Below are positions 19,140 through 55,928 of a DNA stretch of 64,000 nucleotides, piece after piece. Origin of the DNA: Candidatus Nomurabacteria bacterium. Lineage in GTDB: Bacteria > Patescibacteriota > Minisyncoccia > Phycocordibacterales > UBA9973. The notes beneath the pieces were generated by a model that searched no databases, had not been told where the DNA came from, and saw only the letters and a program-made list of their open reading frames with translations. Every line of letters starts with the position of its first letter. The first letter of the stretch is position 1. Where the stretch lies: the NCBI GenBank assembly GCA_026395995.1, contig JAPLXQ010000011.1, positions 4,210-68,209 on the forward strand, read 5' to 3'. Both the position numbers and the translations under genes were made by a program.

Positions 19140-19502
19140 ATGACAAATTCAGCAGTTACAACAGTAGTTTCGTTTAATTTTTTTGATTTTTTAAAATCAA
19201 TTTCTAGATGGTATAAAAACCGTATAGGCAATAAAAAAGGTTTTGGTTGTTGCCCTAATTGTGGTGATAGCTGGAATTGGAAAAGTAGTATCGGTGTTGA
19301 GTATGAAAAACACTATTTTTTTTTTTTTTTTTTTATTTCACCCTCAGTAAGTATTTGCAGCGAATGTTTAACTTCCGCAAAATTTGATTACCAAAGAATT
19401 GAAAAACATTTGGAGTCAGGTACTTGGGAAAAAGAAAACATTGCGAAAGCAATAACCGCCTTAAAAGAATTTGAAAAAAACAAAAAATTAACTAAAAACT
19501 AA
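19140..19502 (+). CDS. hypothetical Cys-rich small protein containing a T20 homopolymer tract
   Basis: CPNCG ... CSECL zinc-ribbon-like halves separated by the FFFFFF translation of a 20 nt poly-T run (19315-19334). Coding status is uncertain. Confidence 0.3.
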   Translation: MTNSAVTTVVSFNFFDFLKSISRWYKNRIGNKKGFGCCPNCGDSWNWKSSIGVEYEKHYFFFFFFISPSVSICSECLTSAKFDYQRIEKHLESGTWEKENIAKAITALKEFEKNKKLTKN

Positions 19503-40311: not shown

Positions 40312-40710
40312 ATGAACCGAAAAGAAATTTTAAAACAAATGGCTATTGTCATTTTTTTTGTTTTTAGCTTAAACCTTATAGCTCATAAGCTATATTGGTA
40401 TACTTCGATCTGGTATTTTGATATGCCGATGCACTTTTTAGGTGGATTTTTTATCGGACTTTTGGGAATGTATCTACTACCGTATTTTTCCTCCCCCTTA
40501 CTAATGGGGAGGTTGGGAGGGGGTCTTTCTATTTTCCTTTTTGTTCTAATTATCGGTATCGGCTGGGAAATTTTTGAAATTATTTTTAATAATATTATTG
40601 CTGGACAATATTTTAATACGCTCGATACTCTTTCATATATTTTTTTTGATCTTTCTGGTGGACTATCAGCTTATTTTTTTATTTTAAAAAAAAGTGAAAA
40701 TAGTATATAA
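40312..40710 (+). CDS. membrane hypothetical protein
   Basis: Four TM helices. Confidence 0.4.
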   Translation: MNRKEILKQMAIVIFFVFSLNLIAHKLYWYTSIWYFDMPMHFLGGFFIGLLGMYLLPYFSSPLLMGRLGGGLSIFLFVLIIGIGWEIFEIIFNNIIAGQYFNTLDTLSYIFFDLSGGLSAYFFILKKSENSI

Positions 40711-42103
40711 TATACTTATGTCAAAAAAATTAAAACTAACATTTTGTACAGGGGTCAATACTGTGACCGGTGCAAATTATTTACTAGAAGATGAAGAAGC
40801 CGGTCTTAAAATTTTAGTCGACTGTGGACTTATTCAAGGGGAGAGGACTGCTAACGAAGATAATAACGCACCTTTTTCATATGACCCAAAAACAATTGAT
40901 GTATTGTTTGTCACTCATGCACACTTAGACCATGTAGGAAGAATTCCACGTCTTATCGAAGCTGGTTTTGAAGGTAGAATAATTTCGACTATTGCTACGA
41001 AAGACCTCGCTCGTTTTATGGTGGAAGATGAAGCTCATATCCTTGCTCACAATAAACATATTGATCCTGAGCTAGCAAAAGAATTAATTCAAATCTATAG
41101 TGAGAAAAATATAGATAAAATGATGGACTTATGGGAGGGAGTCCCTTATCATCAACCTTTTGATTTGAAAGGATTGAAAATCAATTTTAGAAATTCTGGA
41201 CATATTCTAGGTTCAGCTTTTATTGAAATAATTTGTAATGGTAAGAAAATCGTTTTTACTGGAGATCTAGGTAATTCTCCATCACCAATACTACAAGACT
41301 GTGAAAAATTGACTGATGCTGACTATTTGATTATGGAGTCTGTCTATGGAGACCGTAATCATGAAGACCGAGATACAAGAAAGGTAATGCTTGAGCATAT
41401 TATTCAAGACAATGTAAAAAAAAGAGGTACATTGGTTATGCCGACTTTTTCGTTGGAAAGAACTCAAGAATTACTTTATGAAATTAGTGATTTGATGGTC
41501 AAAGGACGTATTCCTAATTTTCCATTTTATTTAGATTCTCCATTAGCTATAAAATTGACCGATGTTTACAAAAAACATATTGATGATTTGAACACTGAGG
41601 CTTCAGCTTTAGCAAAAACACATAAAGATATTTTTTCTTTTCCTGGTTTGAAAATTATCGGTGATGCAGAAGAATCTAAAAATATTTTACGTATGCCAAA
41701 TCCAAAGATTATTATTGCAGGAAGTGGTATGTCTTCCGGTGGGCGAGTGGTACATCACGAGCACAACTATTTACCTGATCCAAATAATACAATTCTTTTG
41801 ACTGGCTACCAATCCGTCGGTACCCTAGGTAGACACATCCAAGACAAAGAGAATAGTGTTTATATAAATGGAGAGCAGGTTTTAGTTCGTGCAAAAGTAG
41901 AAATGATTTCTGGTTATTCTGGTCATAAAGATTCCGACGCACTCTTGGAGTTCGTAAATGGTACTTCGGAAACAGTAAAACAAATTTTTACTGTCATGGG
42001 TGAGCCAAGCGCCTCGATGTTTTTAATACAAAAAATTCGAGACAATCTCGGTCTCTCAGTTCGACAGCCAGAAAAAGGCGAGATCGTTTTTTTAGAATGT
42101 TAA
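40694..42103 (+). CDS. beta-CASP family MBL-fold ribonuclease (RNase J/CPSF-like)
   Basis: VTHAHLDHVGRIP metallo-beta-lactamase motif plus beta-CASP C-terminal region; 469 aa. Confidence 0.7.
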   Translation: MKIVYNILMSKKLKLTFCTGVNTVTGANYLLEDEEAGLKILVDCGLIQGERTANEDNNAPFSYDPKTIDVLFVTHAHLDHVGRIPRLIEAGFEGRIISTIATKDLARFMVEDEAHILAHNKHIDPELAKELIQIYSEKNIDKMMDLWEGVPYHQPFDLKGLKINFRNSGHILGSAFIEIICNGKKIVFTGDLGNSPSPILQDCEKLTDADYLIMESVYGDRNHEDRDTRKVMLEHIIQDNVKKRGTLVMPTFSLERTQELLYEISDLMVKGRIPNFPFYLDSPLAIKLTDVYKKHIDDLNTEASALAKTHKDIFSFPGLKIIGDAEESKNILRMPNPKIIIAGSGMSSGGRVVHHEHNYLPDPNNTILLTGYQSVGTLGRHIQDKENSVYINGEQVLVRAKVEMISGYSGHKDSDALLEFVNGTSETVKQIFTVMGEPSASMFLIQKIRDNLGLSVRQPEKGEIVFLEC

Positions 42104-42121
42104 TTATGTTATAATCATTAT

Positions 42122-42730
42122 ATGGATATAAAAGCACCAAACCCCTATGTAAAACATGGGCATCGTCAAATAAAAATTTGTGTCTCTGGAGCAGCAGAGA
42201 CTGGTCACTGTGGACCAAATGCATTACAAAAAGCCAAAGACTTAGGCTCTGAGATTGTACGTCAGGGAGGAGTCCTCGTCACTGGGGCCACTACTGGTTT
42301 TCCTTTGTGGTCATCGATGGGCGCAAAAGAAGTAGGAGGTATTTCTATTGGTCTTTCTCCTGCAGCGACTGAAAAAGAACATATTCAAGTATACAAGCTT
42401 CCAGTAGATTATATGGATTTGATTATCTATACAGGTTTTGGTTACCAAATGCGAGATATATTATTGACACGTAGTACTGATGCCGTAATCTTAGGTTGTG
42501 GACGTATAGGCACTATACATGAGTTTACCGTGGCTTTTGAAGATGATAAACCAATTGGAATACTAGAAGATCCGGGATGGGAAATGGGAGATGAGATAAA
42601 GATGATTATTGAAAAAGGTCATCGTCCAAATCCAAAAATAGTATTCGATACTGACCCTAAAAAACTCGTAGAAAAAATTATTGATCTAATATTTAAAGAC
42701 AAAGACGCCGCTGAAGAGAATAAGAGTTAA
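42122..42730 (+). CDS. TIGR00725/LOG-like Rossmann-fold protein
   Basis: 'KICVSGAAETGHCG...VLVTGATTG' resembles the LOG/DprA-like SLOG family. Confidence 0.5.
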   Translation: MDIKAPNPYVKHGHRQIKICVSGAAETGHCGPNALQKAKDLGSEIVRQGGVLVTGATTGFPLWSSMGAKEVGGISIGLSPAATEKEHIQVYKLPVDYMDLIIYTGFGYQMRDILLTRSTDAVILGCGRIGTIHEFTVAFEDDKPIGILEDPGWEMGDEIKMIIEKGHRPNPKIVFDTDPKKLVEKIIDLIFKDKDAAEENKS

Positions 42731-42764
42731 ACTAAAATACATAGGTGAGACCTATGTATTTTAG
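42729..42764. repeat. 36 bp hairpin repeat (actaaaatacataggtgagacctatgtattttagtt), left flank of DGR cassette
   Basis: Near-identical copy at 45495-45533; also serves as a terminator hairpin. Confidence 0.9.
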
Positions 42765-42891
42765 TTTATAATTTAAGTTAAAAACTTGACTTTTATAGTG
42801 TATTGTGCTACACTTGTAGTTGGGAATATGTTGTCTGCCTAGCCCAAAGGGACACGAAAAGTACATTGTAATATATCAATAAATTTGAGTC

Positions 42892-43674
42892 ATGAAAGAC
42901 GAAAAAGAAAATCCGGTTTCTAAACCGACAGCGGGGATGCTCGCACAGTTAGGCTTCATTGTAGGCCAGCAAACGATTAAAGTATTATGTGAAGATGATA
43001 AAACTCTCTCGCATAGTGACGTTCAAATGATGATTTCTGACCCTGAAAACAGCAAGCAATTGCGCGAGTTATCAGAGCAGAATGCTATCAAAATCTTTGG
43101 CATTGTTTCCGATTCTTGGAAACGTGAAAAAGAAAAAAATACAAAATTTTGGAAAGAGTGTTTTGGTATTGATATACCTTGGGAGAAATTAATTATCTCA
43201 AACACAAATCCTGAATTTAAATTTGCTGAATTTATTCCTGAAAGTATCACTGCTCAAAAAGCTTTTGATATTTACGAGAAGAGATTTGGCAAGGACAAGG
43301 TATACAACTACTACGCTGAAAAAGGTATTGATAAAAATATCAAAATACAGCAGGAACGTCCAAAAGGTGATTATGTTATTTGTCATTTAGGTGGCGAAGA
43401 ACCTGATGCGAAACATCTCAATAAAAGCTACGATATATTTTCTACTGATGGAATCAAATATATGATTCCAAAAGAAGGAATAATTGCAGCACTGCGTTAT
43501 CGTTTTGAAACCGGCAAAATGTATGATGAAAAAGGATTAACATTTTTTCACGCGCTGGATGCCGATGACAAGGTGATGTGCATGAGCGGGAACGACAGTG
43601 GCAGGTTCTACATCAGCTGGGACGGCACGGGCTTCCAGAGTGCTGAGTTTGGTCCTCGTCAGGTCAGTTTCTAA
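42892..43674 (+). CDS. DGR target protein (variable C-terminus; likely CLec-fold ligand-binding domain)
   Basis: The C-terminal 35 codons are the VR: they match the downstream TR except at TR adenines. Confidence 0.75.
   Translation: MKDEKENPVSKPTAGMLAQLGFIVGQQTIKVLCEDDKTLSHSDVQMMISDPENSKQLRELSEQNAIKIFGIVSDSWKREKEKNTKFWKECFGIDIPWEKLIISNTNPEFKFAEFIPESITAQKAFDIYEKRFGKDKVYNYYAEKGIDKNIKIQQERPKGDYVICHLGGEEPDAKHLNKSYDIFSTDGIKYMIPKEGIIAALRYRFETGKMYDEKGLTFFHALDADDKVMCMSGNDSGRFYISWDGTGFQSAEFGPRQVSF
43558..43662 (+). repeat. DGR variable repeat (VR)
   Basis: 105 bp aligned to the TR at 43959-44063 with about 22 mismatches, all at positions where the TR has A. Confidence 0.85.
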
Positions 43675-43958
43675 AACTTTTCTTTTTTATTTTTTAACCC
43701 TGTATTTAATTCCCGTACTTCATTATGAAGGACGGGAATTTTTTTATATAATAATATTGGCTGTGAAAATGGTCTCGATTTAAATTGAGATAACATTTTG
43801 CCAAAAATTAGAAACTGCCTGTAAAAAATTGTTGATATAAGATCAAAAACAAAGCTTGCGACCGCAAGAGATAGAGATAGGAACCTGCCTATTATTTATT
43901 CAAAATATTTCTATGGAGATATTTGGTGATACGGAAGATTTTTTACAGTAAAGGACTG

Positions 43959-44063
43959 AATGCCGATGACAAGGTGATGAACATGAACAAGAACAACAAT
44001 GGCAAGTTCAACATCAACTGGAACAACACGGACAACCAGAATGCTAAGTTTGGTCCTCGTCAG
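43959..44063 (+). repeat. DGR template repeat (TR)
   Basis: Non-coding, A-rich copy of the target 3' end, followed by a hairpin aatccgc...gcggatt. Confidence 0.85.
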
Positions 44064-44089
44064 AAGTTTCTCGTGAATCCGCTTTCAAT

Positions 44090-44434
44090 TTATTGAGGCG
44101 GATTTTGTGTTATGGATTTCATCCAGCCGTTTGCCATCATGGAAATATTTTGTAAATTTTCTGCAAGGAGTAGATATTGTTTTTCAGGAATTATTTTGAG
44201 TTCGTATTCAGTACGGATTAAGTGTTTCAATACTTCAGTTTTCAATCTGACTTCTTTCAAATATTGTAATTTTTCTAATTTTGGACGAAAAGCTGATTCG
44301 ATACTCATCGCGAGCAAATGCAGGGAATATTCTTCTATTTTTTTATGAATACCGAGTTTATCGGATTTTGGTAATTTATTTCCTAAAATATAAATAGTTT
44401 TATATAATTTCTTTATATGACTAATGATAGGCAA
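44090..44434 (-). CDS. avd: Avd-like accessory variability determinant (four-helix-bundle / 23S rRNA IVS protein family)
   Basis: 114 aa; 'LPKSDKLGIHKKIEEYSLHL...LQNISMMANGWMKSI' parallels the IVS/Avd family consensus (FPKEE.YGLTSQLRRAA.SI...E.ML.GLIKSL). Confidence 0.7.
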   Translation of the reverse strand: MPIISHIKKLYKTIYILGNKLPKSDKLGIHKKIEEYSLHLLAMSIESAFRPKLEKLQYLKEVRLKTEVLKHLIRTEYELKIIPEKQYLLLAENLQNISMMANGWMKSITQNPPQ

Positions 44435-45513
44435 ATCAATATTTTCTCTGAAGTTGTTGCGGGGGGGGGCTACTCATAGTGACTTATTTTACCACATAAT
44501 TTCACCAGAAAATCTGCTTTTAGCATGGCGAGAATTTAAAAGAGGAAAAGCAAAGAAGATAGACATACAAGAATTTGATTTCTATTTAGAAGAAAATATT
44601 TTTAAACTTCATAATGAATTAAAAAATAAGACATATAAACCGAGTCCATATATCCCATTTTATGTTTGTGATCCAAAGCGTCGGCATATACATAAAGCTT
44701 GTGTACGAGATAGAGTAGTACATCAGGCATTGTTTAGAATTATCTCACCAATTTTTGAAAAATCTTTCATCTATGATTCTTTTTCTTGCCGGAAATACAA
44801 AGGAACGCACGCGGGAGTAGAAAGATTAGAGAACTTTTTGCGACAATCAAGTAAAAATTATTCACAAATAACTTATGCTTTGAAATGTGATATTTCTAAA
44901 TTCTTCGATTCTATTGATCACTGTATTTTAAAAAATTTATTAAGAAAGAAAATTACAGATAATGATGTATTTTGGCTTTTAGAAATTATCATAGATGGTT
45001 TTGAAAAGAAAAGTAAAATATACGCCATGGCTGATATTTCAAACTCACCACTTCTAGCGATAGCAAAGAGTGGTGAGTTAAAAAAAAGGGCTTCCTCTCG
45101 GTAATGTAACAAGTCAATTTTTTGGAAATATTTATTTGCACCAATTAGACTTTTTTATTAAAAATAACTTGAGAGTAAAATACTATATTAGATACGCTGA
45201 TGATTTTGTTATTTTATCAACTGATTATGAGATTCTTTTAAATTGTATTGATAGGATACGAAATTTCTTAAATAAAGAATTATTACTTATATTACATCCA
45301 AAGAAAATATCTATTCGTAAAAATATACAAGGAATTGATTTCTTGGGTTATGTTTTATTACCACATTATAAAGTTTTAAGGACAAATACAAAAAGAAGAA
45401 TTTTTAGAAAATTTAAAAAGAATCTTTCCAAAGAACAACAAGCATCTTATTTCGGAGTATTAAGTCATTGTAAAGGGTATAAAGTAAAACAACAACTAAA
45501 AATACATAGGTGA
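44424..45513 (+). CDS. DGR reverse transcriptase, interrupted by a frameshift in an A8 tract (45080-45087)
   Basis: RT motifs RDRVVHQAL, SFSCRKYKGTHAG, LKCDISKFFDSIDH, then (after the +1 frame change) KGLPLGNVTSQFFGNIYL (the DGR-specific LGxxxSQ) and YIRYADDFVIL (YADD). A G9 tract (44461-44469) lies 36 nt after the ATG. Confidence 0.85.
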
Positions 45514-45533
45514 GACCTATGTATTTTTAGTTG
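45495..45533. repeat. 38 bp hairpin repeat, right flank of DGR cassette
   Basis: Near-identical to 42729-42764. Confidence 0.9.
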
Positions 45534-51378: not shown

Positions 51379-51434
51379 ACAACAAAAAAATCCCCGCCAG
51401 CTGGTGGGGATTTTTTTGTTGTTTGCGAATCGAG

Positions 51435-51835
51435 TGGAGATGGGGAGAATTGAACTCCCGTGCAAAAGGGATGTGTAAAGAATTCTACATACGTAGTTTA
51501 CTTATTTGTTTAAATTAAAAAACTATTAAGTATACGAAATATTTTTTAATCGATTTCCTTTATTTTACTCGAGTGTCGGATCAGTCACTCAAACTATCCC
51601 GATAATATTATGCCTCACTCTATCTATCGGAAGTCGATAGAGGAGACACCAGACCGGCCAGTTATGTTAGGCGAGTGCTGGAACAAAAGAGAAGTCAGCC
51701 ATACCGAAGTATGGAGATACGCTTTTGTTTGAAGTCAATTTTGCAATTAACATTTAGACGAATTTTTACGAGATTACGTCAATACTCGGCACGCATCAAT
51801 AGCACATATTCCTCTTGTCTATGCCTTGCATCCCC
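51435..51835 (-). ncRNA. ssrA: tmRNA (SsrA)
   Basis: On the minus strand. 5' GGGGAUGCAAGG... acceptor arm pairs with 3' ...CAUCUCC-A. T-arm is GGGAG-UUCAAUU-CUCCC. UGCCGAG...CUCGUAAAAA PK1-like region. Candidate tag ORF ...GCU GAC UUC UCU UUU GUU CCA GCA CUC GCC UAA (ADFSFVPALA*). Adjacent to smpB. Confidence 0.7.
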
Positions 51836-55854: not shown

Positions 55855-55928
55855 CCGCCCTTAGCTCAGTTGGTTAGAGCACAGAGCTTATACCTCTGGG
55901 GTCCATGGTTCGAATCCATGAGGGCGGA
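55855..55928 (+). tRNA. tRNA-Ile (anticodon UAU)
   Basis: Cloverleaf: acceptor CCGCCCT/AGGGCGG, D-arm GCTCAGTTGGTTAGAGC, anticodon stem CAGAG/CTCTG with loop CTTATAC, T-arm CATGG-TTCGAAT-CCATG, discriminator A. Confidence 0.7.

Follow-up and report, generated by a model that had tools for sequence, protein, structure and literature searches.

The window analyzed here comprises 64,000 nt (GC content, 34%) of a Candidatus Nomurabacteria genome, from the candidate phyla radiation (CPR; Patescibacteria), and its stretch from 42.7 to 45.5 kb is occupied by a compact and complete diversity-generating retroelement (DGR). This element contains a target gene that ends in a variable repeat (VR), a template repeat (TR), an avd gene, and, divergent from avd, the gene for the reverse transcriptase (RT). 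Two simple repeats lie within the RT gene: a run of nine guanines (G9) shortly after its start and a run of eight adenines (A8) farther on, at which the reading frame is broken. In relatives of this RT, hypermutable repeats are concentrated at the positions of these two runs, and we propose that the RT, and with it mutagenic retrohoming, may be phase variable.

A complete DGR with an interrupted RT gene

The element is a genuine DGR. Its RT, which matches RVT_1 in Pfam (E = 8.5e-20), is of the DGR type, with the motifs GLPLGNVTSQ and YADD, and the neighboring avd product is recognized by the Pfam model bAvd PF22296 (E = 1.7e-12; 48.2 bits, with a cut-off of 40) as well as by the NCBIfam model DivGenRetAVD, there at a score under the model's 80-bit cut-off (E = 2.3e-13; 50.4 bits). 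A divergent avd adjoins the RT in about 70 of the 80 relatives of the genome set described below. TR, which begins 401 nt downstream relative to VR, differs from it at 19 positions, every one of them a TR adenine (19 of 41 adenines) and every one at codon position 1 or 2. The 260-aa (amino acid) product of the target gene gave no match in a Pfam/family search. An active DGR should also have an uninterrupted, translatable RT gene, and in the window this frame is broken at A8.

An earlier note on this stretch had described an RT split at A8, and both its coordinates and its reading of frame 0 were reproduced: from ATG 44424, the open reading frame (ORF) runs to ...GELKKRASSR and ends at a stop codon at 45102 to 45104. 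The note had further placed YADD in the +1 frame only, and it is indeed there alone that we find GLPLGNVTSQ and YADD. The +1 frame is closed by a TAA at 45079 to 45081, is open from 45082 to 45513, and reads KKGLPLGNVTSQFFGNIYLHQLD...YIRYADDFVIL; the two frames can be joined solely within 45082 to 45101. Deletion of one A restores a single RT, as the note had stated, with a length of 362 aa plus the stop (the note's 363 aa counts the stop codon). In an alignment of 26 sequences, consisting of the repaired window RT and its 25 closest relatives, the repaired protein retains all columns that are invariant among those relatives, and it contains no further stops. Because the first start codon in the +1 ORF, TTG 45136, lies downstream of motif 4, the two ORFs as called cannot jointly give a complete RT.

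As a homopolymer, A8 is ordinary. The window contains 8 A8 and 11 T8 runs, which is below the shuffled counts, and 48 A7 runs; the run at 45080 to 45087 is unusual for breaking a conserved ORF and not for its length. Counted as overlapping matches, A8/T8 runs reach 36 where 67 are expected, about half the number in dinucleotide-preserving shuffles, which suggests that this AT-rich genome tends to avoid long A/T homopolymers.

The entire cassette is flanked by two copies of a 29-nt palindromic direct repeat, AAAATACATAGGTGAGACCTATGTATTTT, which is absent elsewhere in the window (chance expectation, 0). It may represent a duplicated terminator or an insertion scar and is not a general feature, flanking hairpin repeats being found in only 3 of 91 relatives. 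The coordinates of all features of the locus are collected in Table 1.

Table 1. Features of the DGR locus, in window coordinates
Feature	Position	Strand	Description
29-nt palindromic repeat, left copy	42734..42762	.	Perfect repeat; after stop of SLOG-family gene
DGR target gene, 260 aa	42892..43674	+	ORF; C terminus carries VR, ...FGPRQ region aligns to TR
Variable repeat (VR), 108 nt	43555..43662	+	Direct repeat, end of target gene
Template repeat (TR), 108 nt, AAC/AAT-rich	43956..44063	+	Direct repeat
avd, 114 aa from TTG 44434	44090..44434	-	bAvd PF22296; ORF open up to 44473
Clade-conserved RT start codon (MTNDR...)	44417..44419	+	Out of frame with RT body in G9 state
RT N-terminal ORF, 226 aa, motifs 1 to 3	44424..45104	+	NCBI reverse transcriptase domain protein, Candidatus Nomurabacteria metagenome-assembled genome (P0001)
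G9 tract (C9 on avd strand), slot 1	44461..44469	+	Within overlap of RT and avd 5' ends
A8 tract, slot 2	45080..45087	+	+1 relative to in-frame A7 (Leu-Lys-Lys-Gly), 8 nt before motif 4 (GLPLGN)
RT C-terminal part, +1 frame (motif 4 GLPLGNVTSQ, YADD, thumb)	45082..45513	+	125 aa as called from TTG 45136
29-nt palindromic repeat, right copy	45499..45527	.	Perfect repeat; overlaps, and supplies, last RT codons and stop

Repeat tracts at two positions of the RT gene

The G9 run lies 12 codons into the RT ORF, at codon 13, just where it had been noted before. It is the sole G run longer than 6 in the 64 kb, with 0.02 expected per window by chance and only 1 of 100 shuffles holding any. It is read as CGG GGG GGG, that is, with the rarest Arg and Gly codons of the genome (CGG, 0.8 per 1,000; GGG, 5.1 per 1,000), which argues that the bases rather than the peptide are what is kept.

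The tract is placed such that its length may affect two genes. The divergently oriented RT and avd share about 60 nt at their 5' ends (44417 to 44477). Within this overlap, the conserved RT start is the exact complement of a conserved Avd His codon, and a conserved His codon of the RT (in GGGxxHS) is the complement of the upstream avd ATG (44477-44475, minus strand). When the tract length was varied in a simulation, G8 or G11 put both conserved ATGs in frame, including the avd ATG at 44477-44475; with G9 or G12, ATG 44424 served as the RT start and TTG 44434 as that of avd; and G7 or G10 left no RT start whatever. In the G9 state of the window, the RT body is in frame with ATG 44424 and not with the conserved ATG at 44417, and it is A8 that destroys the ORF. 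A conserved string upstream of the G run, TATAAT...ATGAAYAAY, was considered as a promoter followed by a start codon and set aside; we make no promoter claim for it, because Avd codons on the opposite strand (K-L-Y, ..H..) explain most of its conservation.

About 160 relatives were compared, in two mutually independent sets of 80 loci each. The genome set was drawn from species-representative genomes, with enough upstream sequence at 76 of the 80 loci. The metagenome set (71 loci counted) originated from a scan aimed at a Berkelbacteria locus whose RT carries an RERE run, which returned 1 near-identical and 79 distant loci, and it served as replication. We defined strong repeats as G/C runs of at least 7 nt or dinucleotide repeats of at least 5 units, and we distinguished two slots: slot 1, the RT start, overlapping the avd start, and slot 2, the linker between motifs 3 and 4 just 5' of motif 4. 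In the genome set, 35 strong repeats fell into the 16.9 kb of slot 1 and 7 into the 8.8 kb of slot 2, with 11 in the remaining 564 kb; the corresponding counts in the metagenome set were 44 in 16.4 kb, 11 in 8.8 kb, and 6 in 347 kb. The density of strong repeats in the two slots is thus 40 to 150 times that of the remaining locus sequence in both sets.

A G7 to G12 run homologous to that of the window is present at 29 of the 76 genome loci and 25 of the 71 metagenome loci. It sits about 550 to 635 nt upstream of motif 4 and, in the genome set, is practically the sole such run per locus. Slot 1 as a whole is filled by G7 to G12 or by (GT)n/(GA)n, with G, GT/TG, GA, or CT as units, and slot 2 has its hot spot 5 to 80 nt before motif 4, where we found (AG/GA)5-25, G7, G9, and G12. 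Repeat units occupying one and the same slot encode unrelated peptides (GGG, VCVC, LSLS, and RERE). The (GT)n repeat can fall upstream of the RT start, so slot 1 may, at such loci, act on the spacing of the promoter or 5' untranslated region (5' UTR) of the divergent pair. The most extreme repeats are a (GA)25 between motifs 3 and 4 in the linker of one relative (L118) and a (GT)20 at the RT 5' end of another (L150).

At none of these loci are both slots occupied by a strong repeat. Loci with a strong repeat in slot 1 only, slot 2 only, both, and neither numbered 35, 7, 0, and 34 in the genome set and 40, 10, 0, and 21 in the metagenome set (Fisher P = 0.013 and 1e-4, respectively, phylogeny being ignored). 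The encoded proteins follow the same rule: among 287 full-length sequences, 139 have an N-terminal GGG, 35 have a linker RERE, and none has both. Comparison with related genomes, which the earlier note had proposed as a check, placed repeats at both of its tract positions, with lengths that are polymorphic among relatives. While the note was correct about the presence of G9, it understated the role of this tract, which appears to be the window's copy of a clade-wide hypermutable element, conserved in this RT clade within the avd overlap, a feature absent from the note. Of the genome-set relatives that have a homopolymer at the A8 site, the closest is L003, whose A7 is in frame.

Tract lengths differ between near-identical loci, which were sampled from groundwater and other environmental metagenomes. 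One RT, its protein body and flanks identical throughout, has a G8 tract in a JGI sample, G9 in eight contigs of ENA and Logan, and G11 in a sample of ENA. A second RT occurs with G9, G10, G11 (six contigs, including an NCBI metagenome-assembled genome [MAG] and a Logan contig), and G12, at loci that are 99.4 to 100% identical over 3.7 to 5.5 kb; in one pair of these, the tract is the sole indel, accompanied by a single mismatch. Since the G9 to G12 alleles are found on two VR haplotypes, the G tract has probably changed repeatedly. N-terminal variants were present in 10 of 10 inspected clusters of proteins at 90% identity.

A separate observation concerns loci L092 to L100 (groundwater metagenomes and NCBI GCA_003518045.1; L095 coordinates, 1122-1213), where, besides the G run, nearly all differences lie in the target VR, in two haplotypes. 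These haplotypes agree with an earlier activity of the DGR in the population concerned.

Slot 2 is polymorphic as well. In five protein clusters, the RERE run either shows in-frame variants (ERE, ERERERE, and ERERERERE) or is exactly where the ORF is broken, and the split alleles then give an N-terminal and a C-terminal piece, the latter beginning just before GxPxGN. At the Berkelbacteria locus, (AG)6 gives a 333-aa RT in one metagenome (L108), whereas (AG)7 gives a split into 198 and 150 aa at eight other loci, including two NCBI MAGs, with identities of 99.4 to 99.9% over up to 6.6 kb. Among natural alleles, called proteins measure 357/358, 352, and 324 aa as well as 333 versus 198 plus 150 aa. 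Judged by its sequence, the window's own split into 226 and 125 aa at A8 appears to match the slot 2 splits of the relatives in both nature and location.

Proposed phase variation of the RT and alternative explanations

Phase-variable genes have a slippage-prone repeat in the gene or at its 5' end, yield full-length or truncated products depending on the tract, and differ in tract length between near-identical genomes. The first two properties are found here, the second in silico for the window and for locus L085; the third is found in the relatives only, the window organism being known from one sample (SRR20698644). We propose that replication slippage at the slot 1 or slot 2 tract would shift the RT reading frame and that, at slot 1, it would perhaps also change the start codons used, or the spacing of the promoters, of RT and avd alike, including a long form of Avd. 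Populations would then be mixtures of RT-ON and RT-OFF cells, such that mutagenic retrohoming would itself be phase variable. In this scenario, the window captures an RT turned OFF by A-tract slippage in the Lys-Lys tract just before motif 4, with G9 as its copy of the slot 1 element. We assign a probability of roughly 0.55 to this reading, namely, that the RT is OFF in the sequenced population through a real A7-to-A8 slippage and that the tracts make the RT, and hence mutagenic retrohoming, phase variable.

That the tracts would be selected switches is suggested by the retention of their position despite changes of the repeat unit, by the use of rare codons, by the presence of one tract per gene, and by the coexistence of ON and OFF alleles, from which we infer that switching is selected and reversible. 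Slipped-strand phase variation, one of the options raised in the earlier note, has strong indirect support from the relatives; for A8 itself, a reversible switch and a fresh inactivating mutation look alike in the assembled sequence. The A8 break is possibly a reversible OFF state produced by slippage at the second hot spot, and we infer that it belongs to the switching rather than being unprogrammed slippage in a weak tract. Nevertheless, A7 is a weak repeat, frequent in the genome yet seldom present at this site in relatives, and A8 may therefore have arisen by an unprogrammed slippage mutation that is easily reversed, or it may mark the onset of decay.

Several points weigh against phase variation. 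Only about 4 of 27 species representatives have the conserved RT ATG in frame, a proportion not predicted by a simple model with ON as the default state. The lengths G10 to G12 come from metagenome assemblies and are open to library stutter. The carriers of slot 1 and slot 2 repeats may be two subclades, in which case shared ancestry inflates the exclusivity statistics, and the repeats could merely accumulate in insertion-tolerant loops. With respect to A8, an A7 is both weak and common here, and L003 is the only relative to have one at the slot 2 site, so that there is no sign of the A tract being a selected switch. Finally, the window organism is represented by one sample only, with both available assemblies probably derived from the same reads.

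The most serious alternative, which we nonetheless consider unlikely, is early irreversible decay, with A8 as an ordinary inactivating mutation and the repeats of the relatives as neutral low-complexity insertions in permissive loops. It is favored by the frequency of A7/A8 runs in this genome, by the differences in length of the linker before motif 4 among relatives, and by the existence of RT pseudogenes in the clade: in a Candidatus Paceibacterota MAG (JARLIA010000005.1; L012:4342), a CGA-to-TGA change places an in-frame TGA at the invariant Arg of YSCR, and this RT is likely nonsense inactivated unless the lineage reads TGA as sense. Pseudogenes are expected to show multiple lesions and lost partners, however, and the window shows a single lesion, with no second one in RT, avd, or TR/VR and with both RT halves intact. 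Decay of the element, which the earlier note had offered as an option, is therefore unsupported in an advanced form, all 19 TR/VR mismatches being at TR adenines and avd being intact. Neutral insertion also fits poorly with strong repeats that are 40- to 150-fold denser in two fixed slots and never in both, with different repeat units at the same slot and the use of rare codons, and with whole and split alleles that coexist on many contigs from the same ecosystems.

Somewhat less probable again is a sequencing or assembly error, the true genome having A7 and an intact RT. The break does fall at a homopolymer in an RT that is otherwise perfectly conserved, and both assemblies, given that one sample alone carries this organism, probably share their reads. 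No intact (A7) copy or close strain of the window RT was found among 5.8 billion proteins, the next relative being 62% identical. Against an error stands a 3,913-nt Logan contig (L001; SRR20698644), made with a different assembler, which is 100% identical to window positions 41612 to 45524, including A8, G9, and VR; in addition, about 11 other A/T runs of at least 8 nt lie within ORFs of the window, all of them in frame and with their ORFs intact. For these two reasons a plain sequencing error, the first explanation suggested by the earlier note, is disfavored. As the NCBI and Logan assemblies probably share reads, their agreement makes an assembler artifact unlikely, short of proof, and A8 is probably real. 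The Logan contig also crosses VR unbroken and without a difference, a weak hint of clonality.

The appearance of a true homopolymer error is illustrated by an apparent long-read assembly (L101; ENA ERZ1286166 contig_4659), in which a RelA/SpoT-HD gene is in three pieces where short-read contigs have a single 470-aa ORF, the RT breaks off at a Lys run, and G9 has shrunk to G6, thereby mimicking the A8 finding. Its RT (P0122) had been a candidate for a second A-run frameshift and was dismissed as an assembly error, given the several broken neighbors and the G6 in place of G9. Unlike in that contig, the genes adjoining the DGR of the window are intact.

Programmed recoding of the A8 allele, by a +1 ribosomal frameshift of tRNA-Lys on AAA_A before AGG or by transcriptional slippage, is very unlikely: the frame 0 codon after A8 is indeed the rare AGG (2.2 per 1,000), AAA in the P site would re-pair perfectly in +1, and the GGTGAG upstream of A8 reads as weakly Shine-Dalgarno-like, but the +1 A-site codon GGG is rare as well, no significant RNA structure follows A8 (z = 0.61), and the shift site is unconserved, with 80 of 80 genome-set relatives matching in one frame and all other homologs among the matches listed being single ORFs of 299 to 441 aa. 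RNA polymerase slippage in bacteria is known at A/T runs of at least 8, and low-level rescue by transcriptional slippage on A8 may occur.

Elsewhere in the window, another A8 (40686 to 40693) is found where a 132-aa membrane protein ORF, at its end, briefly overlaps the annotated GTG start of a beta-CASP/metallo-beta-lactamase gene; these appear to be distinct genes and not the halves of a frameshifted one. The window's longest homopolymer by a wide margin, a T19 run at 19316 to 19334, falls within a plus-strand ORF of 438 nt (stop to stop), beside a short minus-strand ORF. An Rfam scan of the window returned a transfer-messenger RNA (tmRNA) gene (51432 to 51835, minus strand; RF00023, 129 bits) and one tRNA gene (55855 to 55928, plus strand) and nothing beyond these.

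Implications and relation to known systems

Taken alone, the A8 finding in a single genome is modest, and it is the clade-wide pattern that matters more. We tentatively extend phase variation to a large DGR clade of CPR/Patescibacteria, at odds that we put a little short of even: each RT would carry one hypermutable repeat, at one of the two slots, which toggles mutagenic retrohoming and lets lineages freeze or resume VR diversification, the window being a slot 2 OFF state. A DGR that was permanently on would continually replace adaptive variants. If the proposal is correct, the tracts provide a heritable, reversible, built-in ON/OFF control of hypermutation, i.e., a second-order evolvability mechanism, and they would account for the many CPR DGR RTs whose annotation shows two ORFs or odd N termini. 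In these lineages, DGR surveys that drop split RTs or trust called starts will miscount the elements that are active.

Both DGRs and phase variation through repeat tracts are familiar on their own, and, as far as can be told, their clade-wide combination is undescribed. A survey of CPR DGRs was reportedly carried out by Paul et al. in 2017. The DGR literature that we covered, outside of which lies this main survey of CPR DGRs (Paul et al. 2017), makes no mention of hypermutable repeats in the RT gene and draws no link between DGRs and repeat-tract phase variation. CPR DGRs were also surveyed by Wu et al. (2018; PMC5758913). With the prototype DGRs, such as that of Bordetella phage BPP-1 (brt/avd/TR/mtd), the window shares motif 4 of the form GxPxGNxxSQ, the four-helix protein Avd, differences at TR adenines only, and a target gene with VR at its 3' end. 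It differs from them in an avd that is divergent from RT and overlaps its 5' end, in the interrupted RT ORF, and in the hypermutable repeats at two fixed RT positions.

Slippage and frameshift sites that are conserved among orthologs, mostly in the -1 direction, include the dnaX site A_AAA_AAG, those of the IS3 family, the A9 of Thermus dnaX, and Shigella mxiE. Like these, the A8 site is an A-rich slippery run joining two overlapping frames of one protein; in contrast to them, it needs a +1 shift, is unique to this genome, and is without significant downstream RNA structure. A parallel to slot 1 is the fimbrial switch of Haemophilus influenzae, where (TA)n in the overlapping divergent promoters of hifA and hifB sets the -10/-35 spacing. 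In both cases, one tract lies between or within two divergent genes, both of which it affects there and may affect here, but here, at most G-run loci, the tract lies in overlapping 5' coding regions, and it possibly lies in the 5' UTR or promoter at (GT)n loci.

Outside the classical pathogens, hypermutable tracts that serve bet-hedging have been described as phage contingency loci (bioRxiv 2025.10.21.683753; PMC12633550); according to the abstract, they concern another host and gene class, and no link to DGRs is made. Contingency loci are also known as poly-G tracts within ORFs of Neisseria, Campylobacter, and Haemophilus (e.g., PMC5084427 and PMC6321876). The tracts of the present RT clade have in common with them a G/C or dinucleotide composition, a position in the 5' part of an ORF, lengths that vary among near-identical strains, and full-length versus truncated products. 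The difference lies in the genes concerned: there, surface or restriction-modification genes are switched, whereas here the gene that may be switched encodes the targeted-hypermutation enzyme of CPR bacteria.

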